The notes under the pieces were generated by a model. That model ran no database searches and had not been told where the DNA came from. It saw nothing but the letters and a program-made list of their open reading frames with translations. The position numbers and the translations under genes were made by a program. Below are positions 6,526-47,750 of a DNA stretch of 64,000 nucleotides, piece by piece (within the stretch, counting starts at the first letter, position 1; every line of letters starts with the position of its first letter). The stretch comes from Mobula hypostoma. Its lineage: Eukaryota. The stretch spans positions 4,960,001-5,024,000 of the forward strand of contig NC_086097.1 of assembly GCF_963921235.1 (NCBI RefSeq). Direction: 5' to 3'.

Positions 6526-6529
6526 ATTT

Positions 6530-25854: not shown

Positions 25855-26416
25855 CATTGGATCTTGGAGTCCAAGCCTATAGCTCCATTAAAGATGGCAC
25901 ATAATTTCATAGAGTAGCAAAGAAACCATAAGGGATGCTGATCTTCATTGGTTGACGCACTGAGTTACTGAGTTCAAGAGTTAGAAAGATAAGCTACAAC
26001 TTTATAAAGTTCTGAATGGCCAATGAACCCATGTACACTATTCACAATAAATCTATTGAATATTGAAAGGCCTCGATAGAGTGGATGTGGAGAGGATGTT
26101 TCCTATAGCGGGTGAGCCTAGGACCAGAAGACACAGCCTCAGAATAGAGAGATGTCTATTTAGAATGAAAATGAGGAGGAATTTCTTTAGCTAGAGGGTG
26201 GTGAATTCGTTGCCACAGGTGGGTGTGGAGGTCAAGTCTTTGAGTATATTTAAAACAGAAGCTGATGTGTTCTTGATAAGTCAGGGTGTCAAAGGTTACA
26301 GGGGGAAGGCAGAAGAATGCGGTTCAGAAGGATAATAAATCAGCTGTAATGGAATGGTAGTATGGACTTGATGGACTGAATGGCCTAATTTTGCTCCTGT
26401 ATCTTATTAGCTTATA
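25855..26416 (+). mobile_element. Old CR1 3' fragments
   Basis: SRTR.HSLRI..RRNFFS.RVVN remnants and CR1 tail. Confidence 0.75.
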
Positions 26417-26930
26417 CACACAAGACGTTGACGAAAATATGTCTACTAAATCAGGTACAGTTAATTGGCAAAGTGTACCTGGTTCAACTTAAATTATATA
26501 AAATATCTCAAGCATTTTCAGTCCCACCTACAGCAGATTTGTGCTTTGAAATGAACGATGATTGCTTTTGAATTCCTCTTCAATTCTGTTTCAAAATTGC
26601 CCATGATTGCACAGATCTTTTAATGAGTTTGTGGGATTATGCAGTTCAGCAATGAGTTTGTGGGATTATGCAGTTCAGCACTGAGTTTGATTTCATCTGC
26701 ACAACAGTTAAGACATTTTAACTGCCTTTAATATTTAATTAATATCACTTATTTTAAATGAGAAATGTTGATGTAAATTGCAAAGAATATTAACTGTGGG
26801 AGAAGGTTTATCATGATACCTAATCAATGTCTGTAATTGCCATTTGAAATTACCGGGGGAATGCTGTCAATGATCAGCCCTGTATTTGCCCACTGTTTTA
26901 GGGACTGCTCGTGTGTTTGTTGTTAACTGG
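26417..26930 (+). repeat. Left arm of a long-range inverted repeat (non-coding, unclassified)
   Basis: Reverse complement aligns by eye with 45935-46652, including 40-bp and 30-bp identical runs. Confidence 0.9.
26622..26689. repeat. 29-bp tandem duplication (~2.3 copies)
   Basis: aatgagtttgtgggattatgcagttcagc x2; a single copy in the partner arm. Confidence 0.9.
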
Positions 26931-26972
26931 CCCTGTTGATGAGCAAGTGAGGAGGATATGAACATGTATAAT

Positions 26973-27053
26973 CAGGGGTTCCCATTCTTATTCATGCCAT
27001 GCAACCTCTATAATTACCTGAGAGGTTCGTGGATCGCAGGTTGGGGACGTCTG
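26973..27053. mobile_element. Small hAT-like MITE
   Basis: Imperfect TIRs caggggttccca / tggggacgtctg; no clean TSD. Confidence 0.5.
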
Positions 27054-27920
27054 TTTGATGGTTGGCATGCATTTAGTGGGCCGAATGGCCTGTTTCTATG
27101 CCAAATGAATCCATGACAGATCTTTTCACATAGCTACAAATTATATGTTATATCAACTATTCATAGATGTCCTATGCACTGCAATTACTTATGAAGAAAC
27201 TGTGGCCAAACTAGCATTATGTACAACAATTCAATCCAAGAAGAGTTGACGGAAAGGCGGATGATAGTGTTGAAGAGGAGGTGGCTGGTTTACAAACAGG
27301 GGTGATGTGTAGAAAGGAGAGGCTGTTGACAGGGCAATGCTGCAGTCAAAAGGATTAGCTCCAAAGTAAAACGCAGACAAAATCAAAAAGGGTGAATATA
27401 GGACTGAAGGTGTTGCATTTGAATGTGCGCAGTATATGGAATAAGGTAGATGAACCTGCAGCACAGTTGCAGATTGGCAGGTATGATCTTGAAGGCATCA
27501 CTGAATCATGGCTGAAAGATGATAAATGGGAGCCTAAAGTCCAAAGATACACATTGTATAAGAAGGATAGGCAGGAAGGCAGAGAGGGCGGTACTGCTCT
27601 GTTGGTAAAAAATAAAATCATATCATTAGAAAGAAGCGACATAGGGTCAGAAGATGTTGAATCATTGTGGGTAGAGCTAAGGAACTGCAAGGGTAAAAAG
27701 ACCTTGATGGGAGTTGTATACAGACACCTAATCAGTAGTAAGGATGGGGCCAATGAATTACAACAGGAGATAGAAAATCCATGCCAAGGGATCCGGTGAC
27801 ATCATCATCCAGAATGGCAGCTTAAATCAATAGCTCCTCCAGAAAAATGCATATATTGCCCCGTTAATCCATCAAATATAAGATCTTTCGAAAATATCTG
27901 AATTGATAAGGGGGGCAAGA

Positions 27921-28863
27921 ATGGGGAGAAAGAATGGAGATTAAAAAAGCTTCACTGCGGAGCCTATGGACGGGAAGGGTACAACGCGCGGCTCTCCTAC
28001 CCAAACGCGTGCTAGCGAGGCTGACGATGGGCAAATATGATAAAAATTCTGGAAGAGATATGGGGATTCCGAAAAGATATAAAATAGCAACTCAATGATA
28101 TCAAGTCAGAGCTCGCCAACGTCAATCAGAAAATAGCAGTGGCAGAGACTCGAATTGAGAAGGTGGAAGATCGCGTGCAAAATGTGGAACGGATACTAAG
28201 TAAGACGATAAAAATATTAAATCAACAAGAAAGTAAACTGATTGACCAAGAGGGAAGATCACGATGCAAAAATATCAGGATATACAATGTTCCCGAAGGA
28301 GTGGAGAATTTGTCTATGATGGAGTTTGTAGGAAAGTTGCTGCGGGATGCGCTAGCGATTCCCTCCACTATGGAGTTGAAATTGAGAGGGTGCATTGTGC
28401 GCTTATCCCAAGGCCTACTGGAGATAGAGAAGATAAGCCACACTCAATAATAATTAGACTCCTTCGATATAATACCAAGGCGGAGATTCTATGAAGGGCC
28501 TGGGTAAGAAGAGGGAGTTTTTGGATGGGAAATTAATATATTTCGATCAAGATTACCCCTCAGCGGTCCTGCAGAAACGTAAAGAATACTCTGCAGTAAA
28601 GCGAATATTAAAGCAAAGAAAAATTAAGATTCCAAACTCCGTACCCTGCTAAACTGAAGGCGCTTTATGAAGATGGTATGCAACTGTATCAGACAGTGGA
28701 AGAGGTGTCTACAGACATGAGGAACAGAGGGCTGCCCGTCAGCGTGATCAAACCGAGGGAAAGCCTGACTGAGCAGTTATCCCGATCTGCTTGGGAAATA
28801 GTAAGAGAACTGAGAAAGCAGGGGATGGGAGGAGGGCGAGAGAATATCAGGAAAAGACTGTGA
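27921..28863 (+). pseudogene. L1 ORF1 remnant
   Basis: Coiled coil followed by EGRSR.KNIRIYNVPEG.E, IERVH, IYFDQDY, YPAKL motifs; stops and frameshifts. Confidence 0.88.
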
Positions 28864-29028
28864 GTTTTCCAAACCCCCTCCAGAAGAGCCATAAGGTTTG
28901 GCTAACCTTAGAAGTGTTGATAAGATAAACGGAAGCAAAAATAGACGATGCTATACCTATTTCAAGAAATACTTATTATAATGTGGATTTTATATTACTC
29001 AATTTTTTTTTATTCATTCATTCACTCC

Positions 29029-29593
29029 TTTCTATGTTTCTATGTTGGTCCCCTAATCTGAGGAAAGACATCCTTGCCAGAGAGGAGTGTAAAGAAGGTT
29101 CACCAGATTGATTCCTGGGATGGCAGGACTTTCATATGATGAAAGACTGGATCGACTAGGCTTATACTCATTGGAATTTAGAAGATTGAGGGGGGATCTT
29201 ATTGAAACGTATAAAATTCTAAAGGGATTGGACAGGCTAGATGCAAGAAGATTGTTCCCGATGTTGAGGAAGTCCAGAACGAGGGGTCACAGTCTGAGGA
29301 TAAAAGGGAAGCCTTTTAGGACCGAGATGAGGAAAAACTTCTTCACACAGAGAGTGGTGAATCTGTGGAATTCTCTGCCACAGGAAACAGTTGAGGCCAG
29401 TTCATTGGCTATATTTAAGAGGGAGTTAGATATGGCCCTTGTGGCTAAAGGGATCAGGGGTTATGGAGAGAAGGCAGGTCTGGGGTTCTGAATTGGATGA
29501 TTGGCCATGATCATACTGAATGGCGGTGCAGGCTCGAAGGGCCAAATGGCCTACTCCTGCACCTATTTTCTATGTTTCTATGTTTCTATGTTT
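29029..29593 (+). mobile_element. Young CR1 3' fragment in the L1 inter-ORF spacer
   Basis: ORF 29108-29491 nearly identical to the C-terminus of 12386-11256; (TTTCTATG)n at both ends. Confidence 0.93.
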
Positions 29594-29914
29594 TCCCCAC
29601 CTAAATGAGAATATATATATATGGGAGGAATACACAGGGAAATCTTTTTTGTGTAATGGATATAGACTTGTTCACTCACTTTTATGGGTACTGTAATGGG
29701 GGTCCCCAACCCACAGGGAAAAGGGGCTATCCCCCACGGCTAGACGTTTCCTCCAGCTCAACCCAGGGTCATCTACTAGAGACCTCAGCCTTGCAACCAC
29801 AACTTCGTTGCCTTTTTTAAAATTATTCGCGTTTCTTGGTTCTTATTTGCTCAGGGAATAGATCGATTAAGTTTTATTCTGCTAATTTCAGTGATATATT
29901 GACAGATAAATACA

Positions 29915-32900
29915 ATGGCTAAGGACAAAGTAAAATTCATTTCTTTTAATGTCAATGGGCTGTTAAATCCAATCAAACGCAGTAAAATTCTAACCAAAAT
30001 AAAAAAAAGAACAAGCCCATGTAGTATATTCGCAGGAAACTCACTTAAGTGATATTGAGCATGGAAAATTAAAGAGAATGGGCTTCACTAATTTGTTTTT
30101 CTCCTCATATAAATCAGGACATAGGAGAGGAGTTGCTATTCTTATCTCAAGTAAGCTAAATATTGAAAAAGTATTCAAAGTGGGAGATAAGGAGGGCTGA
30201 TATATACTGGTAAGGTGGATATAGATGGAAATTCAGTTACTCTATTGAATATATATGCACCCCCAGGATGATATTAGTTTCCTCCAGAAAATTACTAATA
30301 TTACACTCATTATTCTGCCCCCATTCCGTATATACAAGAATAGACTATTTCATAACATTTGGAAAAGATAAAGACAAAATAAACACCTGTGGAATTGGGA
30401 CAATAGATGTAAGTGACCATGCACCCTATATATTTATCTGTTGATTTTGACCTACAACCGAAGAATACTATTTGGAAACTTAATTCAAATCTACTCAATA
30501 ATGCCTATTTTAAGGAACAAATTAAAAAAAGAAATTGGTCTTTACTTTGAATTTAATGATAATGGAGAGGTTTCACCTATCATTCTATGGGATACTCTGA
30601 AGGCTGTCCTAAGAGGGAAAATTATAGCGATATCTTCATATAAGAAAAAAATAAGGAATAAAACATTAGAGGAATTACAAAATAGGCTGAAGGAACTAGA
30701 AAAAAAACACAAATTTAATTTGGCACAGGATACATTAGAGGAAGTTAAAAGAATTACGAATGAAATTGATAGTTTGGCTACGCAAGAAATCAGGAAAAAT
30801 TTAATGTTTCTGAAACAGAGACACTATGAAAGTGGATCTAAGTCGATGAAGATACTGGCATGGAAAATGAAGAAAAAGATAGTATAGAACAATGACTGCT
30901 GACATAATTGAAGTTGAAATAAAAACTGCAATTAGTAGGCTTAAATTAAGCAAGTCACCAGGTTCAGATGGATATACGGCAGAGTGGTACCAAGAATTTA
31001 AAAATGAGTTCATTCCTGTCTTACTCCCCACACTGAACTGGGCTCTTAAGAAAGGCACAAATGCCCCCCAGCTGGAAGGAGGCGATAATCTCAGCTACAC
31101 CGAGCGAAGGCAAGGATAAAATGGAATGTGGGTCATTTAGACCAATATCCGTTCTTAATGTAGATTATAGATTATTTACCTCCATCATAGCCAAACCATT
31201 AGAAGAGTGTCTATCCATACTGATACATAAGGATCAGACAGGTTTTATACAACAACGCCAAACACAGGACAATATATGAAGGACACTTCACATTATGGAT
31301 CATATACAAAAAAATAAAATCGAAGCAATAGTGATAAGTGTGCACATTGAAAAGGCATTGATTTGGTTAATTGGAATTTTCTTTACAGAATTTTACGTAG
31401 ATTTGGTTTCCATGACACAATAATTAAAAATATACAGGCACTCTATGACAATCCAACTGCTAGGATTAAAATCAATGGATATTTATCAAACAGAAACATA
31501 GAAAATAGGTGCAGGAGTAGGCCATTCGGCCCTTCGAGACTGCACTGCCATTCAGTATGATCATGGCTGATCAACCAATTCAGAATCCTGTACCTGCTTT
31601 CTCTCCATACACCCTGATCCCTTGAGCCACAAAGGCCATATCTAACTCCCTCTTAAGTATAGCCAATGAACTGGCCTCAACTGTTTCCTGTGGCAAAGAA
31701 TTCCATAGATTCACCACTCTCTGTGTGATGAAGTTTTTCTTCATCTCGGTCCTAAAAGGCTTCCCCTTTATCCTCAAACTGTGACCCCTCATTCTGGACT
31801 TCCCCAACATAGGGAACAATCTTCCTGCATCTAGCCTGTCCAATCCCTTTAGAATTTTATACGTGTCAGTAAGACCCCCCTCAATCTTCTAAATTCCAGC
31901 GAGTATAAGCCTAGTCGATCCAGTCTTTCTTCATACGAAAGTACTGCCATCCCAGGAATCAATCTGGCGAACCTGCTTTGTACTCTCTCTATGGCAAGAA
32001 TGTCTTTCCTCGGATTAGGGGACCAAAACTGCATACAATACTCCAGGTGTGGTCTCACCAAGGCCTTGTACAACTGCAGGAGAACCTCCCTGCTCCTGTA
32101 CTCAAATCCTCTTGCTATGAATGCCAGCATACCATTCGTCTTTTTCACCGCCTGCTGTACCTGCATGCCCACTTTCAATGACTGGTGTACAATGACACCC
32201 AGGTCTCGTTGCACCTCCCCTTTTCCTAATCTGCCACCATTCAGATAATAATCTGTTTTCCTGTTTTTGCCACCAAAGTGGATAACTTCACATTTATCCA
32301 CATTAAATTTCGTCCGCCATGAATTTGCCCACTCATCTAACCTATCCAAGTCACCCTGCATCCTCTTAGCATCCTCCTCACTGCTAACACTGCCACCCAG
32401 CTTCGTGTGATCCGTAAACTTGGAGATGCTGCATTTAATTCCCTCGTCTAAATCATTAATATATATTGTAAACAACTGGGGTCCCAGCACTGAGCCTTGT
32501 GGTACCCCACTAGTCACTGCCTGCCATTCTGAAAAGGTCCCGTTTATTCCCACTCTTTGCTTCTTGTCTGCCAACCAATTTTCTATCCACATCAATACCA
32601 TACCCCCAATACCGTGTGCTTTAAGTTTGCACACTAATCTCCTGTGTGGGACCCTGTCAAAAGCCTTTTGAAAATCCAAATATACCACATCCACTGTTTC
32701 ACCCCTATTCACTCTACTAGTTACATCCTCAAAAAATTCTATAAGATTCGTCAGACATGATTTTCCCTTCACAAATTCATGCTGACTTTGTCCAATGATT
32801 TCACTGCTTTCCAAATGTGCTGTTACCACATCTTTGATAACTGACTCTAGCATTTTCCCCACCACTGATATCAGGCTAACCGGTCTATAATGCCCTGGTT

Positions 32901-35482
32901 TCTCTCTCACTCCTTTTTTTAAAATGTGGGGTTACATTAGCCAGCCTCCAATCCTCAGGAATTAATCCAGAATCTAAAGAGTTTTGTAAAATTATCACTA
33001 ATGCATCCACTATTTCTTGGGTTACTTCCTTAAGCACTCTGAAATGCAGACCATCTGGCCCTGGGGATTTATCTGCCTTTAATCCCTTCAATTTACCTAA
33101 CACCATTTCCCTACTAACATGTATTTCCCTCAGTTCCTCCATCTCACTAGACCCTCGGTCTCCTACTATTTCCGGAAGATTAATTATGTCCTCCTTAGTG
33201 AAGACAGAACCAAAGTAGTTATTCAATTGGTCTGCCATGTCCTTGTTCCCCATGATCAATTCACCTGTTTCTGACTGTAAGGGACCTACATTTGTCTTAA
33301 CCAATCTTTTTCTTTTCACACATCTATAAAAGCTTTTAGTCAGTTTTTATGTTCCCTGCCAGTTTTCTCTCATAATCTGTTTTCCCTTTCCTGCTGGACT
33401 CTGAATTTCTCCCAGTCCTCAGGTGTGCCGCTTTTTCTGGCTAATTTGTATGTTTCTTCTTTGGAATTGATACTATCCCTAATTTCCCTTGTCAGCCATG
33501 GGTACACTACCTTCCCTGGTTTATTCTTTTGCCAAACTGGGATGAACAATTGTTGTAGTTCATCCATGCGATCTTTAAATGCTTGCCATTGCATATCCAC
33601 CATCAATCCTTTAAGTATCATTTAAGTAAATAGTTTTACCCTAGCAAGGGGCACGAGACAGCATTATTCATGGTCACCGCTACTCTTCGCATTTTATCTG
33701 GAACCATTTGCTCAATACATCAGACAAAATGAAGACATCAAGGGAATTACTATTAAAGGGACAGAACGCATATTGGCCTGTTACGTGGATGACATTTTGA
33801 TCTATCTAGAGCTACCAACATACTCTTTAGCTAAATTGTTGCAATCGTTTGAACAATATGGTCAATTATCAGGATACAAGATCAACATAGATAAAACCCA
33901 ATTACTTTCATATAACTGTAGCCCACCAAGAGAAATTGAAAGTAGATATCCCTGGGCATAGCGAAAAGGGTCTTTCAAATATTTGGGCATCATTATGCCA
34001 AAAGATTTGTCAAAATTATCAGAATGCAATTATCAGCCTATATATAAAAAAATTAAGGAAGCTCTAACAAGATGGAACCTAAATCCTTTTTTTAGTCTCA
34101 GTTCAAGCACTGAATCTATTAAAATGAATATATCGCCCAGACTATTATACCTCGTTCAGACCCAACCAATAGAGAATAATCAGAATCAATTCAATGAATG
34201 GAACAAGATGCTATCAAGATATATATGGCAAGGTAAAAGGCCTAGAGTTCGTCTCAAAACTTTGCAATTAGCCAAGGAAAAGGGGGGATGGGGCCTACCT
34301 TCTCTTAGAGATTACTATTTTGCAGCACAGTTGAGAGCTGTGATATGCTGGTGCAACCCATCGTATGACGCTCAATGGAAAAACATTGAGGAGAGGGTAC
34401 TTCCCATCCCATACGGGCAATTTTGGCTGATAACAACCTACAAAGGTGCATAAATACTATTGATAATACATGGGTGAAATGGACTCTTAAAATATGGAAA
34501 TCTATTCTAAAAGAATATAAACTAGAGGGAGATATTGCATTTCTTAAATGGTGTACATATGACGCAGATTTTACACCAAATAAACTGGATGCTAGATTTA
34601 AGGACTGGACAGCTAAAGAAATAACAGCTATTTGCAATATAATGAAAGAAGGAACACTGTTCAGTTTTGAAATGCTTAAAGAGAAACACATTAGAAAAAC
34701 AAGACTTTTATCGGTATCTACAGATGCGACAGTATGTTAATAGGACAGTTAAAAATGTAACCAAGGCAAGTGCATGTCTGATAGAGCGATTTAGAAAAGC
34801 ATACAATTCAGATAACGGTAGTAGAATCATTTCAAATATGTATAAGCGTTTGTCAAATCTTAAAACATATTCAACTTCAGACATTAAAACAAAATGGGAG
34901 AAGGAAGGAGGGATAATAATATCTGAGGAAGACTGGACAATAATATGGAGGTATCAATGGAAGTGTACCAGTTCACAGAAATGGAGGGAGTTCAGGTGAA
35001 AAACCTTGATAAGATATTTTATTACACCCTCTCAGAAATCCCATTATGATAGTAACCTCCCTGTTTGCTGGAGAAATTGTGGAAATCAAAATACAAACTA
35101 TTATCATATTTTCTGGGAAAGCCCCGTTATCAAAGACTATTGGAGTGGGATACACAATGCCCTACAAGATATTTTAAAATGTGAAATACCCTTAGAAAGT
35201 AAGACAATACACTTTGGGTATATACCTCAAGAATAGTTGAAAAGAGATAAATATTTAATGAATATACTGCTGGTGGTTGGTAAAAAGACTCTTAACAGGA
35301 AATGGTTATCACAGGAGAGCCCAACTTTAAATGCACAGATGGAAATTACAATGGACATTTACAAAATGGAGAAGATAACAGCATCTGTTAATCATAAGTT
35401 GGAACAATTTGATTCATACTGGGAAAAATGGTTCAACTACATAACACCTCATAGGCCTGATTTTATTCTCAAAAATCAATGA
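29915..35482 (+). pseudogene. L1 ORF2 remnant (APE-RT-CCHC); internal deletion near 30885, CR1 insertion
   Basis: ISFNVNGL..QETHL; NIYAP; SDHAP; KSPGSDG; FRPISVLNVDY; KAF-like; YVDDIL; CWRNC....YYHIFW. Confidence 0.9.
31491..33627 (-). mobile_element. Young 5'-truncated CR1 inside L1 ORF2
   Basis: ORFs 33621-33370, 33319-32885, 32910-31849 and 31843-31580. L1 INGYLSN resumes at 33628 (SFTLARGTRQ). Confidence 0.95.
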
Positions 35483-35570
35483 ATATGTTGTTAAAAAAAG
35501 ACCACTCCCTACTTGTACATAGTTTTCTCCTTTTGCTTCTTCTTTCTTTCCTCTCTTTTCTATATGCGTA

Positions 35571-37124
35571 TCGAGGTATCCCTCACTTTTCGAACGTTCG
35601 CTTTATGAAACCTCACTGTTACAAAAGACCGACATTAGTACCCTCTTTTCGCTTTCAGAAGGTGTTTTCACTGTTACGAAGAAAGGCAGCATGCGAAAAA
35701 ATCAGTGCGTGATAAAAGGCAGCGCGCGTCCCGAGCAGCCGCTCTCCCCCCGATTCCGAATGGCATTGCTTAAACATGTGCCTGTGAGCAGCCGTTAGCA
35801 AGATGAGTTCTATGCTATCGAAAAAGCCTAAAAGAGCTCATAAGGGCGTTACACTTAGCGTAAAACTAGACATAATTAAGCGTTTCGATTGTGGTGAACA
35901 AAGTAAGGACAAAGTGATCTTGGCTGTTGGAAGCTGACGAAGATGATGTTGAAGAGGTTTTGGCATCCCATGACCAAGAACTGATAGATGAAGAGCTGAT
36001 GCAGTTGGAAGAGGAAAGGATAACAATCGAAACCGAATGCAGTAGCGAACTGAACGTGATAAAGTACGACTTTAATTTTGAAAGGGTACGTAGGTTTAGG
36101 GGATATTTGCAGGATGGTTTGCATCCTTACAAACAACTGTATGATAGAAAAATGCGCGAGGCTCAGCAGTCAAGCAAGCCTTCCACATCAGCCACAGCAA
36201 ATGACGAACCTTGATCTTTGACATCGAGGCGGGCAGTCATCAGAGAAGATGAGCTGCCTGCCCTGATCGACGATGAGATGACACCCCCGTGTCCCACCAT
36301 CCCAACACCCGGGCCCCGGACAGAGTCTGTACTGATTCGCTGAGAATGCAATGGTAGCTAGGAGGCTCACAGTACATCTTTAAGAAAAAAATCGAAATAA
36401 CAAGCTAATTAATTAGGTGCCGCCGACACGTAATTTTCGGCCCAGATCAGTGCCGATTTACGATTGCATCGCCTCTGATCTGGGCCAACAATTGCATGTC
36501 GGCAGCACCTAATTAATTAGCATGTTTATTTTGGCTTTTTTCTTAAAGATGTGCTGTGTGCCTCCCGGCTACTGCTGCGTTCTTCGCGGCAATGTATCGG
36601 GTCGGCGGCCTGGAGGGTGGGGGGCCACTGCACCACCCAGCCTGCGACGACCCAGTCTAACACACCATCATCAGTGTGCTCGGCAAGCTGTCTTCCCGAT
36701 TCCGGTAAGTGATACTACACTGTACATACATTATTTCTACTTTATATAGGCTGTGTATTTTTACATGTTATTTGGTAGATTTGGCAGCCTCATAGCTTAA
36801 AGGTTACTGGAGAGCGCATTTATGCCAACAGCGCTTGCGTGAGATATTCGCTATAGAGATCTGTGCAGGCAATCGTTGCAGAGAAGTATTTCTACTATAT
36901 ATAGGGTGTGTATTTATCATATCATTCCTGCTTTTACTATATGTTACTGTTATTTTAGGTTTTATGTGTTACTTGGCATGATTTGGTAGGTTATTTTTGG
37001 GTCTGCGAATGCTCACAAAATTTTCCTATATAAATAAATGGTAATTGCTTCTTCACTTTACGACATTTCGGCTTACGAACCATTTCATAGGAACGCTCTA
37101 CCTTCGGATGGCGGGGGCAACCTG
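35571..37124 (+). mobile_element. Internally deleted Tigger/pogo DNA transposon in the L1 3' UTR
   Basis: TA on both flanks; imperfect TIRs; CENP-B-type HTH start MSSMLSKKPKRAHKGVTLSVKLDIIKRFDCGE (35803) fused to the acidic C-terminus DVEEVLASHDQELIDEELMQLEEER; no DDE domain. Confidence 0.85.
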
Positions 37125-37931
37125 TACCTCAGATAAATATTATGGGAGATTTGTGGCAAATAGGATTATATGATATATATGTACAATATCTGAAATACGT
37201 CTTATGGAAATGTTTTTTGATGATGAACTTCAATAAAAAATAAATTTCACAAAAAAAGAAAGTCCATGCCAAAAGGGCAATGTTACAATCGTAATGAGGG
37301 GCTTCAATATGCAAGCAAATTGGGGAAATTCCTGTGCTGGAATGCAGGAGAGGGAATTTCTAGAGTGCCTACAAGTTGGCTTTTTAGAGCACCTTGTGGT
37401 TGAGCCCACTAGAGGATCAACTATTCTGGACTGGGTGTTGTGCAATGAACCAGAATTGATTAGAGAGCTTAAGGTAAAAGAACCCTTGGGGCAACTAATC
37501 ATAATATGATTGAATTCACCCTAAAATTCGAGAAGGAGAAGCTGAAGTCAGATGTATCAGTATTACAGTGGAGTAAAGGGAATTACAGATCCATAATGGA
37601 GCAGTTGGTCAGAATTGATTTGAAAAGAACACTGGCAGGGATGACGGCAGAGCAGCAATGGCTGGAGTTTCTGGAAGTAATTTGGCAGGCACAGGATACA
37701 TACGTCCAAAATTCCTTAGAGAGGACACTGAAACTGATCTCTGAATTCTGACATTTGAGTTGTAATTGCGTGACACTGACTGCGATCCTACTATGGTGCC
37801 CAATTGACGCTGACTTAACCTAATTGATCTTGGTAAACAACAGGAATTCTGCAGATGCTGGAAATTCAAGCAACACACATCAAAATTGCTGGTGAACGCA
37901 GCAGGCCAGGCAGCATCTCTAGGAAGAGGTA

Positions 37932-37969
37932 CAGTCGACATTTCAGGCCGAGACCCTTCGTCAGGACTA
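37932..37969 (-). ncRNA. Hammerhead ribozyme motif (GAAAUGUC variant)
   Basis: As 13742, with one CpG-type change. Confidence 0.65.
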
Positions 37970-39720
37970 ACTGAAGGAAGAGTGAGTAAGGGATTTGAAA
38001 GTTGAAGGGGGGGGAAGATCCAAAATGATAGGAGAAGACAGGAGGGGGAGGGATGGAGCCAAGAGCTGGACAGGTGATAGACAAAAGGGATATGAGAGGA
38101 TCATGGGACAGGAGGTCCGGGAAGAAAGACAAGAGGGGGGGGACCCAGAGGATGGGCAAGGGGTATATTCAGAGGGACAGAGGGAGAAAAAGGAGAGTGA
38201 GAGAGAGAATGTGTGTATAAAAATAAGTAACAGATGGGGTACGAAGGGGGAGGTGGGGCATTAGTGGAAGTTAGAGAAGTCGATGTTCATGCCATCAGGT
38301 TGGAGGCTACCCAGACGGAATATAAGGTGTTGTTCCTCCAACCTGAGTGTGGCTTCATCTTTACAGTAGAGGAGGCCGTGGATAGACATGTCAGAATGGG
38401 AATGGGATGTGGAATTGAAATGTGTGGCCACTGGGAGATCCTGCTTTCTCAGGCGGACAAATGGGATGTGGAATTAAAATGTGTGGCCCTTCTAGATCTT
38501 TCTGTCTCTGTCTCTGGAGACAGCTAATCCACTGATGTCTACTATAAGCCTACTGACTCTCACAGCTATCTGGACTATTCCTCTTCTCACCCTGTCTCTT
38601 GCAAAAAGGCCATCCCCTTCTTGCAATTCCTCCGTCTCCGCCGCATCTGCTCTCAGGATGAGGCTTTTCATTCTATGACAAGGGAGATGTCTTCCTTTTT
38701 TAAAGAAAGGGGCTTCCCTTCCTCCACTATCAACTCTGCTCTTAAACGCATCTCCCCCATTTCACGTACATCTGCTCTCACTCCATCCTCTCGACACCCC
38801 ACTAGGAATAGGGTTCCCCTGGTCCTCACCTACCACCCCACCAGCCTCCAGGTCCAACATATTATTCTCCGTAACTTCTGCCACCTCCAAAGGGATCCCA
38901 CAACTAAGCACATCTTTCCCTCCCCGCCCCCTCTGCATTCCGCAGGGATCGCTCCCTACGCGACTCCCTTGTCTATTCGTGTCCCCCCCATCCCTCCCCA
39001 CTGATCTCCCTCCTGGCACTTATCCGTGTAAGCGGAACAAGTGCTACACATGCCCTTACACTTCCTCCCTTACCACCATTCAGGGCCCCAAACAGTCCTT
39101 CCAGGTGAGGCAACACTTCACCTGTGAGTCGGCTGGGGTGATATACTGCGTCCGGTGCTCCCGATGTGGCCTTTTATATATTGGCGAGTCCGGAAGCAGA
39201 CTGGGAGACCGCTTTGCTGAACACCTACGCTCTGTCCGCCAGAGAAAGCAGGATCTCCCAGTGGTCACATATTTTAATTCCACATCCCATTCCCATTCTG
39301 ACAAGTCTATCCACAGCCTCCTCTACTGTAAAGATGAAGCCACACTCAGGTTGGAGGAACAACACCTTGTATTCCGTCTGGATAGCCTCCAACCCGATGG
39401 CATGAACATCGACTTCTCTAACTTCCGCTAAGGCCCCACCTCCCCTTCGTACCCCATCTGTTACTTATTTTTATGCACACATTCTTTCTCTCACTCTCCT
39501 TTTTCTCCCTCTGTCCCTCTGAATATACCTCTTGCCCATCCTCTGGGTCCCCCCCCTTGTCTTTCTTCCCGGACCTCCTGTCCCATGAACCTCTCGTATC
39601 CCCTTTTGCCTATCACCTGTCCAGCTCTTGGCTCCATCCCTCCCCCTCCTGTCTTCTCCTATCATTTTGGATCTCCCCCTCCCCCTCCAACTTTCAAATC
39701 CCTTACTCACTCTTTTCAGT

Positions 39721-39758
39721 TAGTCCTGACGAAGGGTCTCGGCCTGAAACGTTGACTG
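39721..39758 (+). ncRNA. Hammerhead ribozyme motif (GUU triplet variant)
   Basis: tagtc-ctgacga-agggtctcggcct-gaaac-gtt-gactg. Confidence 0.7.
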
Positions 39759-39824
39759 TACCTCTTCCTAGAGATGCTGCCTGGCCTGCTGCGTTCACCA
39801 GCAACTTTTATGTGATCTTGGTAA

Positions 39825-40140
39825 CCTTAGTCTTGGGTAGCGGGTGGAAATACGTCTCTACTAAAGGAAATGTAAGGCACTCGTTCCTTCCACTAGCCTG
39901 CAGGTCATCCTTGGGTATTGTGCAGCACCCACTGAGCCCACAGATCAGGGTCACGTGAGGCCATGGAAGCAGGTGGTGGATGGTCGTATGAGCAACTGGA
40001 GCATATCACAAGTCCTGGGTATGCGACTACTGACTGTAGGCAAACAAAGTATTAATAATGGCTGGGGTCACCTGTCTTGTAAAGGCACTGCCCAGAAGAA
40101 GGCAATGGCAAACCACTTCTGTAAAAAAAAAATTGCAAAA
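39825..40140 (+). mobile_element. RTE-related non-autonomous element, second copy
   Basis: Collinear with 16560-16880. Confidence 0.6.
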
Positions 40141-40517
40141 TTATTTCCAGGCTTTCTGCATGACCCTGATGTCTGCTCAAAGTTCATTATGTTGCTCCTC
40201 AGTTCTGAGTGACCAAGTGCATGTATTCCCAGGATCTGTGTGACTGTTGTATTTTTTCCAGGATGCTTCTTCCCAAACAAGGATTGTTTTTTTTTCTCAT
40301 CCTGGTGTACAGTAGAATTTGCCCCTATTTGTGACATTCAGAAGGAGTATTGTAGACAAAGCTTTGCTGAGGATCCCTACCTGCCATAACCCTCTACTGT
40401 CAGGAAGGATGTACAGGAGCATCAGGACCAGCACTGTCAGATCAGGTAACAGCTTCTTCCCCCAGGCTGTGAGACCAATGTTTACCCTGCCACCACCGAG
40501 GTCTTGGCAACAGACTC

Positions 40518-40534
40518 AAACACACATACACATT

Positions 40535-40567
<33 letters not shown>

Positions 40568-40671
40568 TCATACACGCACACACACTCAAACACACATACA
40601 TACACACACATACACATTCATACACACACACACACACACATTCATACATACACACATACATACACATTCAC
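40518..40671. repeat. Compound (CA)n/(CATA)n microsatellite
   Basis: Direct reading. Confidence 0.95.
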
Positions 40672-40969
40672 CGTGTCATTACCAATTCACCTTGATCCCT
40701 TCCCTTTATATGCTAAATGCCCCGGTCCCTGGTCCCTGAACCTCTTCATTTTGTGTGTCAATATTGCAACCTTTAACCTTGATATCTTCATCCCTAACTC
40801 TGCTTTCCATTTTTGCACACATCTACCAACACCCTACATTCCTAGCCATGTTCTGGCCCAAATTCCTAGATGAACACTGGAACACATTCCCATCTCTCTG
40901 CAGCTACACACCCAGTCCATTGCCTTGTGATATGCCTCGGACTGTAATCGAGACTGGCCAATATGCACA

Positions 40970-41780
40970 GACCTTGGACTTTCTGACTAACAGACGCCAA
41001 TCAGTTAAGTTAGACAACCTCTCCTCCTCCACTCTCACCCTGAACACCGGCGTGCCTCAAGGCTGTGTGCTGAGCCCTCTTCTGTATTCCCTTTTCACCT
41101 ATGACTGCGTTCCTGTACATGATTCTAACTCCATAATCAAGTTTGCAGATGACACCACGGTGGCTGGCCTGATCAACGGGGATGACGAGACAGCCTACAG
41201 GGACGAGGTCCAGCACCTGGCCGCGTGGTATGCCGACAACAACCTGGCCCTTAACCCAGAAGACCAAGGAGATCATTGTGGACTACAGGCATGCTAGGAG
41301 CCACACTCATGTCCCCATCTACATCAACGGACCTGTAGTGGAGTGTGTATCAAGCTTCAAATTCCTTGGTGTCTACATTTCCGAGGATTTTACCTGGTTC
41401 CTCAACTCCTCCATCCTGATCAAAAAGGTGCAACAGCACCTTTATTTCCTGCGGAGCATCAAGAAAGCTCACCTCTGTCCCAGGATACTGACGGACTTTT
41501 ATCGCTGTACCATTGACAGCATACTCACCAACTGCATCTCAGTGTGGTATGGCAATTGTCCTGTATCGGACCGCACTCCAGCATGTGGTGAAAACTGCCC
41601 AGTGGATTATTGGCACCCAATTGCCCACCATTGAGAATATCTACCATAAATGCTGCCTGGGCAGGGCGAAACACATTATGAAGGATGCATCTCACCCTAA
41701 CCATGGACTTTTTACTCTCCTCCCATCTGGTAGGTGCTACAGGAGCATCCGCTCCCGCACCAGCAGGCACAGAAAGAGCT
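40970..41780 (+). mobile_element. Rex1/Babar LINE RT portion
   Basis: TGVPQGCVLSPLLYSLFTYDC..KFADDTT..; cut off at 41780 by a PLE. Confidence 0.9.
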
Positions 41781-42808
41781 TAAACACAAGGAATTCTGCA
41801 GATGCTGGAAGTTCAAGCAACACACATCAAAGTTGCTGGTGAACACAGCAGGCCAGGCAGCATCTCCAGGAAGAGGTACAGTTGATGTTTCGGGCCGAGA
41901 CCCTTCGTCAGGACTAACTGAAAGAAGAGCTAGTAAGAGATTTGAAAGTGGGAGGGGGAGGGGGAGATCCAAAATGATAGGAGAAGACAGGAGGGGGAGG
42001 GATGGAGCCAAGAGCTGGACAGGTGATTGGCAAAAGGGGATACGAGAGGATCATGGGACAGGAGGCCCAGGGAGAAGGAAAAGGGGGAGGGGGGAAAAAC
42101 CCAGAGGATGGGCAAGGAGTATAGTCAGAGGGACAGAGGGAGAAAAAGGAGAGAGAGAGAGAAAGAATGTGTGTATATAAATAAATAACGGATGGGGTAC
42201 GAAGGGGAGGTGGGGCATTAGTGGAAGTTAGAGAAGCCAATGTTCATGTCATCAGGTTGGAGCCTACCCAGACAGAATATAAGGTGTTGTTCCTCCAACC
42301 TGAGTGTGGTTTCATCTTTACAATAGAGGAGGCCATGGATAGACATATCAGAATGGGAATGGGATGTGGAATTAAAATGTGTGGCCACTGGGAGATCCTG
42401 CTCTCTCTGGCGGACAGAGCATAGATGTTCAGCAAAGCGGTCTCCCAGTCTGCGTCGGGTCTCACCAATATATAGAAGGCCACATCGGGAGCACCGGATG
42501 CAGTATATCACCCCAGCCGACTCACAGGTGAAGTATCGCCTCACCTGGAAGGACTGTCTGGGGCCCTGAATGGTGGTGAGGGAGGAAGTGTAAGGGCATG
42601 TGTAGCACTTGTTCCACTTACAAGGATAAGTTCCAGGAGGGAGATGGATGGGAAGGGATGCGGGGGTACGAATGGACAAGGGAGTCGCGTAGGGAGCGAT
42701 CCTTGCGGAAAGCAGAGAGGGCGGGGAGGGAAACATGTGCCTTCACTAAGCCTTCTATATATTGGCGAGACCTGATGCAGACTAGGATCATGGGACAGGA
42801 GGACCAGA
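41781..42808 (-). mobile_element. 5'-truncated PLE with scrambled 5' junction
   Basis: ORF 42736-42218 GIY-YIG; decayed hammerhead at 41879-41916. Confidence 0.9.
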
Positions 42809-42809
42809 G

Positions 42810-43513
42810 GTTCTACGTATCGTGACTTCAAAACATTAAACTAATTCAAAGGAAGATGTGGGAGTCTGAAATGCAGGTTGTACTTCGTGTTTACTTTAAG
42901 TGATTGTGGAGGAAAAGGGTTAATAAGCTACGTGACTAGGGTCAAGGAGACTGCAAAAACCCTTGTGTGCAAATGGAAGAACATCATGTGCTAACTCTTG
43001 TGAGATAAGGTATGAGTCTAATCTGCTGCGACCACAGAAACAGACACTAACGTGCTGAGCTCTGCAGGACAGTTTAACTTGTAACTGCTCCTTTCACTCT
43101 AAATATTTTTAGTGAATGGTAACATATTGTTATAGTGTGGTAATATTTCTACACAATGATTGGATATATTATAATAAGTCTGCTGTTATTATTCTGAACT
43201 GTATAAAAGGATGCCATTGTACCAGGAGAGCAGAGTCCAGTGCTGGAGGAGACCAGCCCTTTCTCTCCTTGGTACCATGTAAAATAAGGGTCCTGAAACG
43301 AGACTACGGAGGCGAGTATTCTTTTCACCTGACTAAAGTCAAACTTCCACAACAGTGATGCGTGCATGTATCATGTAGAAGCGTGATGACAAATGCATTT
43401 CATGTATTTATACAGATAACCTGTAAGAGATTACTTAACCAATGAAGAATGCTTAATCAAACAATATGTATCCAGGATTACTCAAATGTTACTGAAATAT
43501 TAAATACACAACA
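42810..43513. mobile_element. Probable solo LTR with a second LTR nested at 42904-43354
   Basis: Outer element ends ...acacaaca. Inner element ttgtggagg...cttccacaaca is flanked by gtga on both sides and has TATAAAAG at 43203. Confidence 0.5.
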
Positions 43514-43717
43514 AGGGGCACTGCCTCTAAACAATTAGGAACTGGTAAATTTTTTGGAACCCATCATTCTGGAGAGCTGCAGCTCAGTTCATTCAAAATA
43601 CAGATCAATAGATTTCTGAATATTAAGGAAATCAATTCATATGGGAATAGTGTGGAAAATTGAATTGGATGGGTTTATTATTGTCGCAGGATACAGTGAA
43701 AGGCCTTTGTTTTGTGT

Positions 43718-44055
43718 AGCAAAATACTGGGGGAATTCAGTAGGTCAGTCAACATTTATGGAAATGAATAAACAGTCGATATTTCTGCTGCGACCCTTCA
43801 TCATAGTTCTAAATTGTAAAGATCCTGGCTTCACACACAAGATGCTGGGGGAACTCAGCAGGTCAGGCAGCATCTATGGAAATGAATAAACAGTCAACGT
43901 TTTGGGCTGAGACCCTTCTTCATAACTGCAAAGGAAGTGGGAAAGACGCCCAAGTAAAATGGTGGGCGGACGGGAAGGAAGATAGCTGGAAGGTGATCGG
44001 TGAAACCAGAAGGATGGAAAAGTTAAAGGGCTGGAGAGGAAGGAATCTAATCATC
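43718..44055 (-). mobile_element. Two tandem old PLE 3'-terminal units
   Basis: aaatactggggg aattcag..ggtcag..atggaaatgaataaacagtc..tt..gacccttc repeated at ~43720 and ~43835. Confidence 0.65.
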
Positions 44056-44409
44056 ACAGCATGGGCTCGGCTGAGCAACAGATTCGGCAATTGTGCTTGT
44101 AAATATGCACATGTCAATGAATTATTATTTCATGATGGCAGTATTTAACTCCCTTCTTTTCGTTGTAACATTTTCCGAGACTTGAGCGCAACAAGGCAAT
44201 GTTATGCTGCCTACTTGAATTTGGTCTTGCTTGAGAAAGTGGACTGCCAAATGGACTGATGCTGAAGATTAGCGATATCTGTTTTATCTTTAGATATTCC
44301 TTTCAGCTGTGGTGTTGACATCTAGTTTTCTGTTTGAGAGTTTTACTTCCTCATTCTCCCCCTCGGCCCCAATCCTGCAGATACACAGATGAGTCTCCTC
44401 ATAGAGAGA

Positions 44410-45121
44410 GTATTTAAAAATCTGAGGTGCAAAGGGTTTTGAGAGTTCTTGTGCAGGACTCCTAAAGGTTAACTTGCAGGTTGAGTCCGTGGTGAGGAAA
44501 GCAGATGCCATGTAAACATTCATTCTGAGAGGACCAGAATATAAAAGCAAGGATGTAATGCTGAGGTTTTATAAAGCACTGGTGAGGCCTCACTTGGAGT
44601 ATTGTGTGCAGGCTTGGGCCCTTGTCTTAAAAAGAACGTGTTGACAAAGGAGTTTCATGAAAATGATTCCTAGATTGAAAGGTTCTCCCGGATATGAGGA
44701 GCATTTGATGCCTCTGGGTTTTTACTCACTGGAATTCAGAAGAATGAGAGGTGAACTCAGTGAAACCTATCGAAAGTTGAAAGGCCTCAAGAAAGGAGAG
44801 AATATTTCCGATGGTGAGGGAGTCAGAGGACACAGCTTCAGGATAGAGGGACGTGCTTTTAGAACGGGAAATGAGGAGGAATTTCTTTAGCTAAAGAGTG
44901 GTGCATCCATGGAATTCATTGCTTTAGGTGACTGTGGAGGTCAAATCATTGGGTATATTTAAGGCAAAGGGTAACAGATTCTTGATTAGTCAGGTCATCA
45001 CGGGATACGGGGAGAAGGCAGGAGATCGGGGCTGAGAGGGGAATGGATCAACCATGATGAAATGATGGAGCTGATCCGCTGGGTCAAATGGCCTAATTCT
45101 GCTCCTGTATTTTATGGTCTT
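44410..45121 (+). mobile_element. Old CR1 3' portion
   Basis: LVRPHLEYCVQ, YSLEFRRMRG remnants and tail. Confidence 0.85.
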
Positions 45122-45157
45122 ACAAACACAAGAACTCAGCAGGAACAACACACAATT

Positions 45158-45200
45158 GTGCACTGATGATGTCACCTCGACTGGTGATGAAACATTTGTG
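45158..45200 (+). ncRNA. Second-type hammerhead-like motif (decayed)
   Basis: gtgca-CUGAUGA-u-GUCACC-ucgacu-GGUGAU-GAAAC-auu-ugug. Confidence 0.55.
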
Positions 45201-45934
45201 ACCTAACCTCCAGGCTCGGCGAACAACCCTACTAACAAGCAGCCAAGCAGAGCCTCCGGTTTTCCCTTTCATTTTCAATGTATGTATATCTTAGTAAAGG
45301 TTAGTAAATTGTGGGCATTGTGTGTTTTCACTTGAAGCCAGGGGCAGGGGTGGCTTCGGGGCTTCAATGTTTCAATCATTCATTCAATGGGTTTCTTGTT
45401 TTGGGGATGTCTGTGAAGAGTACAAATTTCGGGTTGTAGACTCTATACATTGTCTGATAATAAATGAACCTTTGAACCATTGAAGCATGGTAACACTTGC
45501 AGGCTGCCCCCAGCACATCTCGTCAAATCCTGCACCAAAATCTGCCAATTTTCTAACAACAGTAATAGATTAAAGGAACTTGAATCTGTTGTCCAAAGCT
45601 GTCTGAGGCTGCTCCTTGCCCACCAGATAGAAATTTTATCTCTTTGGGACCTCCGTTACAGACACTCTATCATCCCTACTTCCTGGCATTGCTCACTGCT
45701 TTACTCAACTGAAGGATAATTCCCAGGAAGTCATTCCCCAACGTGTCAATCAAACCTGAAAGATTAGCAAGAAGTGACTGGGCTTTTTGCTGTGGGGAAA
45801 TTGCTCATGACCACAAGATCTCCCTTATGAGCAGGAACTGGGTTGATTCAGAGGCTTTAACATATTTGCTCAAACTAATAAATTGTCCGTCTCTCCATTC
45901 AGTTCTTGAGATTAGTTCATAATCATCTGCACTG

Positions 45935-46652
45935 TGGCAGTTAACAACAAACACGTTATTAGCTCCTGCAAACAGTGGGCCAAATACAAGGCTGTTGATT
46001 GACAGCATTCCCCTGGCTATTTCAAATGGCAATTACAGACATTGATTACCTTTTCTCACAGTTAATATTCTTTGCAATTTACATCAACATTTCTCACTTA
46101 GAATAAGTGATATTAATTAAATATTAATGGCGGTTAAAATTTCTTAAAATCAAACTTAGTCCCGAACTGCATAATCCCACACACTCATCAAAAGACCCAT
46201 GCAATCATGGGTAATTTTGAAACCGAAGTGAAGAGGTGTTCAAAAGCAATCATCATTCAGCTCAAAGCACAAATTCGCTGTAGGTGGGACAGAAAATGTA
46301 TTCATTGAGATGCAGCATGGAACAGGCCCCTCCAGTGATTGAGCCACACCACATAGAAACCCACCCATTTAACCCTACCCTCATCAATTTGCAATGACCA
46401 ATTAACCTTCTAATCAGTATGTCATTAAACGGTGGAAGGAATGAGGAGAACATACAGACTCCTTGCAGGTGACATTGGAAATGAACTCTGAACTCTCAAT
46501 GCCCTGAGTTGTAATCGCATTGCACGAACCATTATGTTACCATGGTCTCCCAAAATGCATAACCTATTTTGTATTATTTGATTTGAACCAGGTCCATTTT
46601 GCTTATTAACTGAACTTGATTTGGAAGTCATGTTTATCCAGCATTTTGTGTG
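45935..46652 (-). repeat. Right arm of the long-range inverted repeat, interrupted by a SINE
   Basis: Matches the reverse complement of 26417-26930 on both sides of the SINE. Confidence 0.9.
46299..46552 (-). mobile_element. tRNA-derived SINE
   Basis: Same family as 8905-9200; flanked by aaaatg on both sides (probable TSD). Confidence 0.75.
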
Positions 46653-47750
46653 TATAAGAACACAAGAACAAGGCCATTCGGCCCATTGAGTCTGCTCCAT
46701 CATTCTATCATAGCTGATTTATTATCTCTCTCTCAAACCCATTCTGCAGCCTCCTCCCTGTAACTTTTGATCCCCTTAATAATCAACAACCTATCAACCT
46801 CGGCTTTAAATATACTCAATGTCTTGGTCTCCACAACTGTCTGTGGCAATGAATTCCACAGTTTTATAACCCCTTTATCTAAAGAAGTTCCTTCTCATCT
46901 CTGTTCTAAAGAGATGTCTTTCTATTCTGAGAGACCAAGACTCCCACACTATATGATACATCTTCCCACATTCACTCTATGCAGACCTTTCAGAATTTGA
47001 TAGGTTTAAATGAGGTCCCCCCGCATTCTTCTCAATTTCAGGAGTACAGGCCCAGAGCCATCACATGCTCCTCATACATTAACCCTTTAATTCCCTGAAT
47101 CATTTGCATAGACCTCTTCTGGACCCTCTCCAATGCCAACATATCTTTTTTTTAGATAAGGAGCCCGAAATTGCTCACAATACTCCAAGTGTGGTCTGAC
47201 CAATGCACTAAAAGGTGTCAAACTGAAAGGTATCCTTGCTTTTATATTCTATCCTTCTCAAAATAAATGCTAATATTGCATTTGCTTACTTTGACCCAAG
47301 TGGCAGGTTAACCTTTAGGGAATTCCCTTTGCCCCTCTGATTTTTGAATTTCTATCCTTTTAGAATATAATTTATGCCCATTCCCCCAATCTGTCTAAGT
47401 CTTTCTGCAGACTCCGGTTTTCAAAGCTACATTCCTCTGAACATATCTTTGTATCATCCACAAACTTGGCCACAAAGCTAGCAATTCCATCAATTAAATA
47501 TTTAACAAATGTATGACCTGAAAAGAAGACGTGTCAACACCGACTCATGTAGAACACCAGCAGCAAACCAGAAAAGGCTCCCTTTATTCCCACTCCTTGC
47601 CTCCTGCCAGTCAACCAATCTGCTGGTACCCTTCCTGTAATACCATGGGCTCTGAACTTGTTTAGCAATCTCATGTGCAGCACTTTGTCAAGGGTCTTCT
47701 TAAAATCCAAGAAAACAATTTCCACTGATTCCCTTTTATCTATCCTGTCT
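46653..47750 (-). mobile_element. Old CR1 3' portion
   Basis: FLDFKK.LDKV.H.RLL.K..AHGI; tail at 46653. Confidence 0.85.

Follow-up and report, generated by a model that had tools for sequence, protein, structure and literature searches.

A constrained non-coding element of Mobula hypostoma, probably an enhancer, duplicated nearby in inverted orientation long ago, its copies apparently separated by transposons since

A segment of 64,000 nucleotides of the Mobula hypostoma genome (contig NC_086097.1, positions 4,960,001 to 5,024,000; hereafter the window, in whose numbering all coordinates are given) contains two copies of a ~500-bp non-coding sequence lying ~19 kb apart in inverted orientation. 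The original prediction proposed that both are constrained around a near-invariant core, and offered as options a duplicated enhancer, a long-range RNA duplex in an intron or an exapted ancient repeat. Low copy number and constraint on the body are supported, and of the three options a putative duplicated regulatory element fits best; with a probability of roughly 0.55, the pair goes back to an ancient event in which a constrained non-coding element, a probable enhancer, was duplicated locally in inverted orientation, the copies being separated by transposons afterwards.

The proposed inverted arrangement is real. Once reverse-complemented, 45938-46656 aligns with arm A (the body at E 4e-94 in BLAST), and the SINE and the 29-bp tandem copy that had been set aside in proposing it are both confirmed, the former being an insert that we take to be a SINE. 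The features are as follows, organisms B, D, G and J being relatives with contigs available for comparison.

26048..26412, plus strand: CR1-type LINE 3' fragment adjoining arm A, the outer duplicated block used as neutral clock (250/329 identical to 46665-47008)
26413..26932, plus strand: non-coding element, copy A (arm A), 395/461 columns (86%) identical to arm B, with orthologous contigs in organisms B, G and J and partly in D
26413..26512, plus strand: arm A's outer stretch, which appears to be neutral (75/99 identical to arm B, matching the level of the CR1 piece)
26513..26887, plus strand: constrained body of arm A (32 differences from arm B versus 75.9 expected, corrected for A/T versus G/C)
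26622..26650, plus strand: recent 29-bp tandem duplication, absent from arm B and from the contigs of organisms B, G and J
26693..26707, plus strand: 15 bp in arm A missing from this genome's arm B (arm alignment)
26728..26850, plus strand: AT-rich core, 76% A+T and no CpG, holding identical runs of 26, 40 and 30 bp
26807..26820, plus strand: 14 bp in arm A missing from this genome's arm B (arm alignment)
26933..45937, no strand: spacer, for the most part transposon remnants (CR1, L1-like, Penelope and other RT elements) by repeat and Pfam evidence
45938..46298, minus strand: arm B body (320/362 identical to 26513-26932)
46299..46552, minus strand: 254-bp SINE-like insertion into arm B, where a 9-bp repeat resembles a target-site duplication (8/9 match)
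46553..46656, minus strand: arm B outer part, whose first 17 bp match a Penelope-type repeat end
46657..47008, minus strand: CR1-type LINE 3' part adjoining arm B (alignment with the arm A CR1)

Although the arms align along their length as predicted, the limits given to them do not hold, homology ending ~360 bp further outward, in the 3' fragment of what we take to be a CR1 element. The CR1 3' junction is identical to the base in the two arms, and the two flanking fragments are sisters (support 0.934) in a tree of 13 CR1 pieces from the window; the CR1 of arm B runs outward to ~47376, past the duplicated block. The copied block is thus at least ~890 bp long, including the CR1 tail, and carries its own neutral clock. 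Beyond it, whether outward or inward, further inverted homology consisted of repeat pieces only, with one CR1 pair as the sole inverted homology of the inner flanks. Two other origins for the shared junction were considered and rejected. CR1 3' transduction fits the layout, but neither a tail nor a target duplication is seen at the inner end of arm A, and a nearby landing is unexpected for retrotransposition. Separate CR1 insertions into a favoured site would agree with a third CR1 (ending at ~45122) that has a similar following word, but four other close copies do not have it; the loose ends behind CR1 tails in the relatives showed no common downstream word (agreement 0.41-0.43), which makes CR1 targeting of the site unlikely.

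The outer part of arm A opens, by motif comparison, with a decayed Penelope-end-like stub, and the Penelope-type repeat end matched by the first 17 bp of arm B occurs elsewhere in the window, as do pieces of the SINE-like insertion. The arms thus bear a small transposon hallmark, where the earlier statement had recognised none; the three ORFs of at least 52 residues that overlap them have no Pfam match. The stub makes a Penelope-driven duplication possible. It also bears on whether the arms, inverted and ~19 kb apart, might both belong to an ancient repeat that is low-copy or exapted (UCON, Eulor and MER being names for exapted ancient repeat types), or might be what is left of a large DNA transposon's terminal inverted repeats: together with the common CR1 junction, it indicates that a block was copied and not that an element was inserted twice. 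Moreover, no transposase is linked to the arms, and a sensitive profile search revealed no third arm copy within the window. Copy number was taken from contigs of organisms B, D, G and J, four of the 24 listed runs, with organisms C, E, F, H and I, a metagenome from skin, two more runs of G and four runs that may derive from the window's own source outside the count; the compared organisms are within ~10% of this genome, and contig copies were detected at 80% likeness or above, such that repeat copies of lower likeness would escape the comparison. In all four runs, one or two contigs covered most of the arm, with three at single columns, compared with ~100 contigs per run for a neighbouring repeat in the same relatives. 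The element is therefore not a high-copy repeat, and the hundreds of copies that an ordinary old transposon would have left were not seen; we regard the repeat and transposon readings as very unlikely. Exact-pattern scans of metagenome and viral contigs, which are non-vertebrate collections, gave 0 matches, a result that carries no information here.

With the CR1 piece as yardstick, the slow divergence of the body is evident. The paralogs differ at 79/329 positions in the CR1 and at 24/99 in the outer part of the arm, compared with 42/362 in the body (Fisher p 2e-5 for body versus CR1, p 0.003 for body versus outer part); after composition correction, 87.2 differences would be expected in the body where 42 are observed, which supports the proposed constraint on both copies. 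The ratio of arm to flank divergence is ~0.55 between orthologs, close to the ~0.44 seen between paralogs. Both copies evolve at about half the neutral rate, each independently, and we consider it highly probable that the element is a constrained duplicate.

Within the AT-rich core, only four differences separate the arms, versus 25.3 expected, and the three identical runs that had been reported, at 26759-26798 (40 bp), 26821-26850 (30 bp) and 26728-26753 (26 bp, AT-rich), are all confirmed by the alignment. The core has an overall identity of 105/109 but is not free of indels, arm B lacking 15 and 14 bp, the latter between the 40- and 30-bp runs. By itself, the longest run is not significant when set against the identity of the element as a whole (p 0.10 in 10,000 permutations). 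A window of 110 columns, at its best, is significant over the whole element (p 0.0096), with p 0.057 in the post-SINE body alone. Among the relatives, the core is not invariant. Both copies retain words that we take to be homeodomain-, Meis- and forkhead-like.

Comparison with orthologs gives a concordant, if modest, picture. Arm divergence from this genome lies below flank divergence in all four organisms, significantly only in J (19/389 versus 40/440, Fisher p 0.021) and B (3/381 versus 13/423, p 0.023), with G borderline (21/395 versus 37/414, p 0.056) and D not significant (10/184 versus 29/408, p 0.59); the four tests are not independent, all sharing this genome's lineage, and the flank contigs contain 64-90 bp of arm plus repeat fragments. 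An excess of cross-species conservation is thus present, at ~5% for the arm versus ~9% for the flank in G and J, but it is modest and significant in two of the four. The strength of constraint is moderate. Two contigs each from G and J span 26514-26840, the second sharing a 1-bp gap in both organisms, and the second contigs in D, G and J cease aligning at the SINE site; those of G and J are probably the B copy. Their first contigs carry 56 unaligned letters outward of 26423, organism B has one contig over 26446-26742, and the contig of D skips 43 bp at the site of the tandem duplication; contigs covering the arm are shorter than 500 bp. Since the depths of the arm contigs (10.1 and 8.4 in G, 17.3 and 13.5 in J) are below those of the flank contigs (12.4 and 25.1, respectively), the two contigs in G or J may, formally, be two alleles.

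Inverted arms allow gene conversion, and the identity of the two arms climbs toward the inner core. Contig breaks, as judged from overlaps and depth, also suggest that the copies share long runs of identity in J (~26810-26872) and in G. The inner part of a neutral, or single-copy-functional, duplicate might accordingly have been homogenised by conversion, as in chromosome palindromes. Yet the paralog distance within this genome (26/275, 9.5%) is no smaller than that across species (24/303, 7.9%; 21/297, 7.1%), the differences not being significant, which argues against both ongoing gene conversion and co-evolving RNA pairing. Among the informative columns listed, arm B carries the letter of the relatives at 7/7, and concerted changes are found at 0/7.

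26556, 26714, 26727, 26802, 26851, 26855, 26880: informative columns listed, with a letter present in arm B and a difference from arm A in at least two contigs of G or J

Conversion alone, moreover, would not slow ortholog divergence, yet the arm is less diverged than the flank in all four relatives (significantly in J and B only). Homogenisation is unlikely to explain the pair, and conversion predating the species split may be the sole variant of it left.

That the element is non-coding follows from indels in the arms that break the reading frame, from 0 Rfam matches at the gathering score over the whole window and from the absence of a stable fold in arm A (z -0.53). Among 100 ORFs from unique segments of the window, no Pfam match could be read as a host gene, the five matches all fitting transposons. 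The body is AU-rich and arm B (plus strand) folds better than its shuffles (z -2.01), features that could suit a transcribed element, whether it belongs to a non-coding RNA or to an untranslated region some distance away, in which each copy is constrained at the RNA level without pairing between arms. This is, however, unlikely given the lack of a fold in arm A, the Rfam results near it (two weak, off-target chance matches, outside the arm), the lack of a recognised coding exon within the window and a candidate splice-acceptor AG (26520-26521) that is not retained in arm B.

The option of a long-range RNA duplex, in which the arms would pair within one long intron to influence how the transcript is edited, spliced or circularised, gained no positive support. 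The arms are inverted, the pair has a predicted energy of -485 kcal/mol, and G and J retain both copies; like the Alu-type duplexes of introns, which involve high-copy repeats flanking exons, similar inverted sequences kilobases apart could pair in pre-mRNA. Unlike those repeats, the element here is low-copy and constrained, and no exon is recognised between the arms. Concerted changes within species are lacking, and the 29-bp duplication, the 15- and 14-bp losses and the 254-bp SINE have all been tolerated unmatched. The mismatches bear out the earlier view that there is no decisive G-U bias, none being specific to the arms: G-U and A-C mismatches number 24 versus 15 in the element and 33 versus 16 in the adjacent CR1 pair, a control that is equally or more biased. 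Younger inverted transposon pairs in the spacer are predicted to be much more stable (-1154 and -946 kcal/mol), so the arm duplex is not special, and we consider it most improbable that such pairing explains the locus.

The spacer, predicted to be mostly transposon sequence, is indeed so: of its 19,005 bp, 8,745 recur at other places in the window, and coverage rises to 15,915 bp once hand-drawn L1-, RT- and transposon-like intervals are added, leaving ~2.9 kb in blocks of at least 100 bp without element assignment. Pfam RT or GIY-YIG matches occur in 5/12 spacer ORFs. This largely transposon-derived composition supports the proposal that the arms were once much closer.

Taken together, the observations would fit a history in which one old, local inverted duplication, probably at the DNA level, took in at least 890 bp comprising the CR1 tail, ~100 bp of neutral sequence and a non-coding element of ~400 bp under constraint. 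Both copies would then have been retained, each evolving separately at about half the neutral rate; a SINE would have entered copy B, and later transposons would have stretched a gap of no more than ~3 kb to 19 kb. Judging from sequence, the balance tips somewhat towards the body being a cis-regulatory element, a putative enhancer bound by transcription factors and acting on a gene outside the window, and the copies would probably be a redundant (shadow) pair indifferent to orientation. If so, the locus would record a clean, datable birth of a shadow enhancer in a cartilaginous fish, with the copied CR1 tail and the SINE as internal clock.

Local enhancer duplication is common in mouse, so the duplicated-enhancer reading would be useful but not surprising. 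Signs of duplication are reported in 33.9% of mouse shadow sets, most hit pairs having flank homology (Ness et al. 2026 preprint, PMC13345019). As in those sets, there are here two nearby copies with homology in the body and in one flank; those enhancers, as there described, are chromatin-defined with assigned genes, whereas the present pair is a putative one, and the inverted orientation and CR1 clock are peculiar to it. Duplicated conserved non-coding elements (dCNEs), as described by McEwen et al. (2009, PMC2781166), are conserved between human and fish, lie beside paralogous genes and derive mostly from whole-genome duplication. The pair resembles them in being paralogous non-coding copies that are both still constrained, but differs in that the copies share one locus, 19 kb from each other, have a local origin that postdates a CR1 insertion, have no recognised host gene between them and show conservation among close relatives only.

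In the 3' regulatory region of mouse IgH, Saintamand et al. (2016, PMC4757795) describe hs3a and hs3b as 97% alike, with intervening DNA palindromic around a central enhancer. There as here, two inverted non-coding copies bound ~20-25 kb, but the present arms are 86% alike, the spacer is mostly transposon sequence without dyad symmetry to the arms, and neither a central element nor an Ig gene is seen. That the inverted orientation is itself functional and conserved across rays, the copies pairing (as DNA or nascent RNA) or bracketing the locus as in the IgH palindrome despite growth of the spacer from a few kb to 19 kb, would be a long shot. Were it true, the locus would serve as a natural test, in a cartilaginous fish, of whether twin non-coding elements act in a manner that depends on orientation and distance, and only if orientation or pairing is under selection would its importance be much greater. 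Literature searches, made without a host gene to go by, listed nothing on this locus, which does not imply that it is unpublished.

Finally, G and J retain the 15 bp at 26693-26707 in their second contigs, which contain only 30 gap letters (29+1), and the 14 bp at 26807-26820 are likewise kept there. The two losses in this genome's copy B point to a relaxation of constraint, and this copy may be starting to decay.

Full alignment of arm A (26413-26932) with arm B (45938-46656), its inverted copy, gives 395 identical columns of 461, and self-BLAST of the window recovers the opposite-strand match 26513-26929 vs 46298-45938 (E 4e-94). The segments of arm A compare with arm B as follows.

Segments of arm A (window positions) and columns identical to arm B
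26413-26512, outer part, 75/99
26513-26621, body segment, 95/109
26651-26692, body segment, 37/42
26708-26806, body segment, 92/99
26821-26887, body segment, 61/67
26888-26932, inner part, 35/45
26728-26850, core, 105/109

In the alignment the SINE-like insert, the tandem copy of 29 bp and the three identical runs (40, 30 and 26 bp) fall at the positions of the original prediction, which omitted two gaps in arm B, of 15 and 14 bp. Taken alone, the identical runs are weak evidence: when the element's columns are permuted, the longest has p 0.10. For the best window of 110 columns the same permutation gives p 0.0096 across the whole element and 0.057 when restricted to the body.

The pair of arms arose by local inverted duplication, and the copied block exceeds the size originally given. 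A 3' fragment of what we take to be CR1 type stops at the identical base before each arm (26048-26412 and 46665-47008; 250/329 identical), and the two fragments are sisters with support 0.934 in a tree of 13 CR1 pieces of the window, two of which aligned poorly. Pairwise identity does not itself single out the pair (0.758, compared with 0.758 and 0.764 between the arm A fragment and two other copies), so what supports a single duplication is the common junction together with the tree. Independently of CR1, the arm's outermost 100 bp show the same 76% identity. Independent CR1 insertion at a preferred site is unlikely, since in contigs of four related organisms (B, D, G and J) no common word follows CR1 tails and loose-end agreement is only 0.41-0.43. 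Within the window, no homology except repeats extends beyond the block, outward or inward. We read the whole as a single inverted duplication that copied 890 bp or more (26048-26932). The SINE-like insert of arm B (46299-46552) is bordered by a 9-bp repeat that matches at 8 of 9 positions, and so came later. At 45100-45240 a third CR1 3' end leads straight into a shortened Penelope-end-like word, an arrangement also present at the outer edge of both arms; in the tree this CR1 is weakly supported (0.699) as sister to the two arm-adjoining fragments.

With the CR1 pair as neutral clock (79/329 columns different), the body (A 26513-26932, B 45938-46298) has diverged less between the copies (42/362, p 2e-5), and less than the outer part (24/99, p 0.003). 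Because the core is AT-rich (76% A+T) and has zero CpG, a base-class correction was applied, giving 87.2 expected differences against 42 observed in the body and 25.3 against 4 in the core; the body figure is the fairer, the core window having been picked after the data were seen. The constraint on both copies originally suggested from the core is supported by slowed evolution of the body.

A search listed 24 sequencing runs (ten organism labels and one metagenome), 20 with part of arm A; four, from organisms B, D, G and J, were compared in detail over 26380-27350 at 80% likeness. At the columns listed, one or two contigs per run cover the arm (three at 26880 in D), with summed depth 0-60, whereas nearby repeat fragments in these runs yield ~100 contigs at depths in the thousands. 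Above 80% likeness, then, the arm does not behave as an ordinary repeat family, and the low copy number speaks for the original prediction, which hundreds of genomic copies would have refuted. An origin as an old repeat or terminal repeats is accordingly improbable, the more so as a sensitive profile built from both arms detects only these two copies in the window.

Both copies are kept in at least two relatives. In G and J two contigs each cover the arm: the first (26423-26846 in G, to 26840 in J) differs from arm A at 21/395 and 19/389 positions, respectively, and the second, from 26514 onward, at 24/303 and 21/297, with 36 unaligned letters past the SINE site. In D, one contig leaves 74 letters unaligned at the SINE position, and another has, like arm B, an extra base near 26898. 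These second contigs and those of D probably represent copy B carrying its SINE. Two alleles in place of two copies are unlikely, as two species share both the stop and the 1-bp gap and the contigs do not merge across 300 bp, though the arm contigs of G and J are less deep than the flank contig. A second copy was not seen in organism B over 26446-26742 (contigs of one run). Both the 29-bp duplication, which organisms B, G and J lack, and arm B's deletions of 15 and 14 bp, which neither second contig (G or J) shows, are thus recent. Flank contigs differ at 37/414 (G), 40/440 (J), 29/408 (D) and 13/423 (B) positions; arm-versus-flank tests, all four sharing one lineage, give p 0.056, 0.021, 0.59 and 0.023, respectively. 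Constraint across species is moderate, with an arm rate ~0.55 of the flank rate. From JC distances of 0.29 (CR1 pair) and 0.095-0.097 (G and J flanks), an uncalibrated ratio, the duplication would be roughly three times older than the G and J splits.

Were the arms homogenised or co-evolving, copies in one genome should resemble each other more than copies from different species do. They do not (26/275 within this genome vs 24/303 for G and 21/297 for J, differences not significant), and there is no sign of concerted change relative to G and J. Arm B has the relatives' letter at 7/7 columns where at least two G/J contigs are unlike arm A and arm B is lettered, among the difference-table rows listed (56 rows are further to these; an eighth column falls in an arm B gap). 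These are private arm A changes, none transferred to arm B. Both results speak against gene conversion between the arms; an old conversion, before the species split, is possible but unlikely. About as unlikely is a transcribed element without pairing between the arms: arm B has a borderline fold (z -2.01), but arm A has none of its own (z -0.53), and Rfam finds nothing at gathering score in the window. An RNA duplex between the arms, predicted at -485 kcal/mol, is very improbable given that TE pairs within the spacer are predicted to be more stable (-1154 and -946 kcal/mol), that changes are not concerted, and that the ratio of G-U to A-C mismatches (24:15) is no stronger than in the CR1 control pair (33:16), in line with the lack of decisive G-U bias reported earlier.

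We favour a duplicated enhancer (probability about 0.55), the body of which would bind transcription factors. The tolerated indels and widening spacer fit a DNA-level function. Enhancers are largely independent of orientation, so the inversion calls for no special explanation; that the orientation is itself functional and conserved is as doubtful as the RNA duplex. Words presumably of homeodomain, Meis and forkhead type are kept in both copies, such words being frequent by chance in AT-rich DNA. The feature is real and belongs to an already known kind. Judged from sequence, the pair resembles shadow enhancers born by duplication, of which 33.9% of mouse sets bear signs (PMC13345019). It is not a classical dCNE, such elements adjoining paralogous genes and stemming mostly from genome duplication (PMC2781166). 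Only the outline is common to the IgH 3' palindrome, whose 97% alike arms and symmetric spacer differ (PMC4757795). No paper on the locus was found, which falls short of showing it unpublished.

The 19,005-bp spacer (26933-45937) is mostly TE sequence, as originally proposed: 46% is repeated elsewhere in the window, and including hand-drawn intervals (L1, RT and transposon-like) brings the assigned share to 84%, leaving seven blocks (~2.9 kb in total). RT or GIY-YIG domains occur in 5/12 spacer ORFs (Pfam). Among 100 unique-segment ORFs of the window, five match Pfam (two RVT_1, two ALKBH8_N, one HTH_23), all apparently transposon-derived; the window is therefore a gene desert or large intron, on a survey that short exons would escape.

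An L1-like element (27802-37260) is interrupted by two CR1 insertions (29045-29590 and 31492-33623) and holds a 1.5-kb CpG-rich insertion (~35566-37089), by eye a DNA transposon, whose two ends do not match at the coordinates compared. The Penelope-type element at 37833-39814 (GIY-YIG match, E 0.002) folds back, 37876-38459 being inverted relative to 39233-39814 (94.7%). A decayed Gypsy-like LTR retrotransposon lies at 3900-7300 on the minus strand, with RT- and integrase-like ORF pieces by eye; it and a CR1 are flanked by a short direct repeat pair (1339-1432 and 7391-7491, 75%, ~6 kb apart), possibly the ends of a small non-autonomous element. The AT-rich, non-repeated stretches 9254-10000, 25450-25950 and 53843-54300, without ORF matches, are candidate further conserved non-coding elements. 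Two young CR1 copies (11170-13242 vs 31494-33557) share 91.8% identity across 2.1 kb, and a number of Penelope copies in the window are at 91-95%; both families have thus been active recently.
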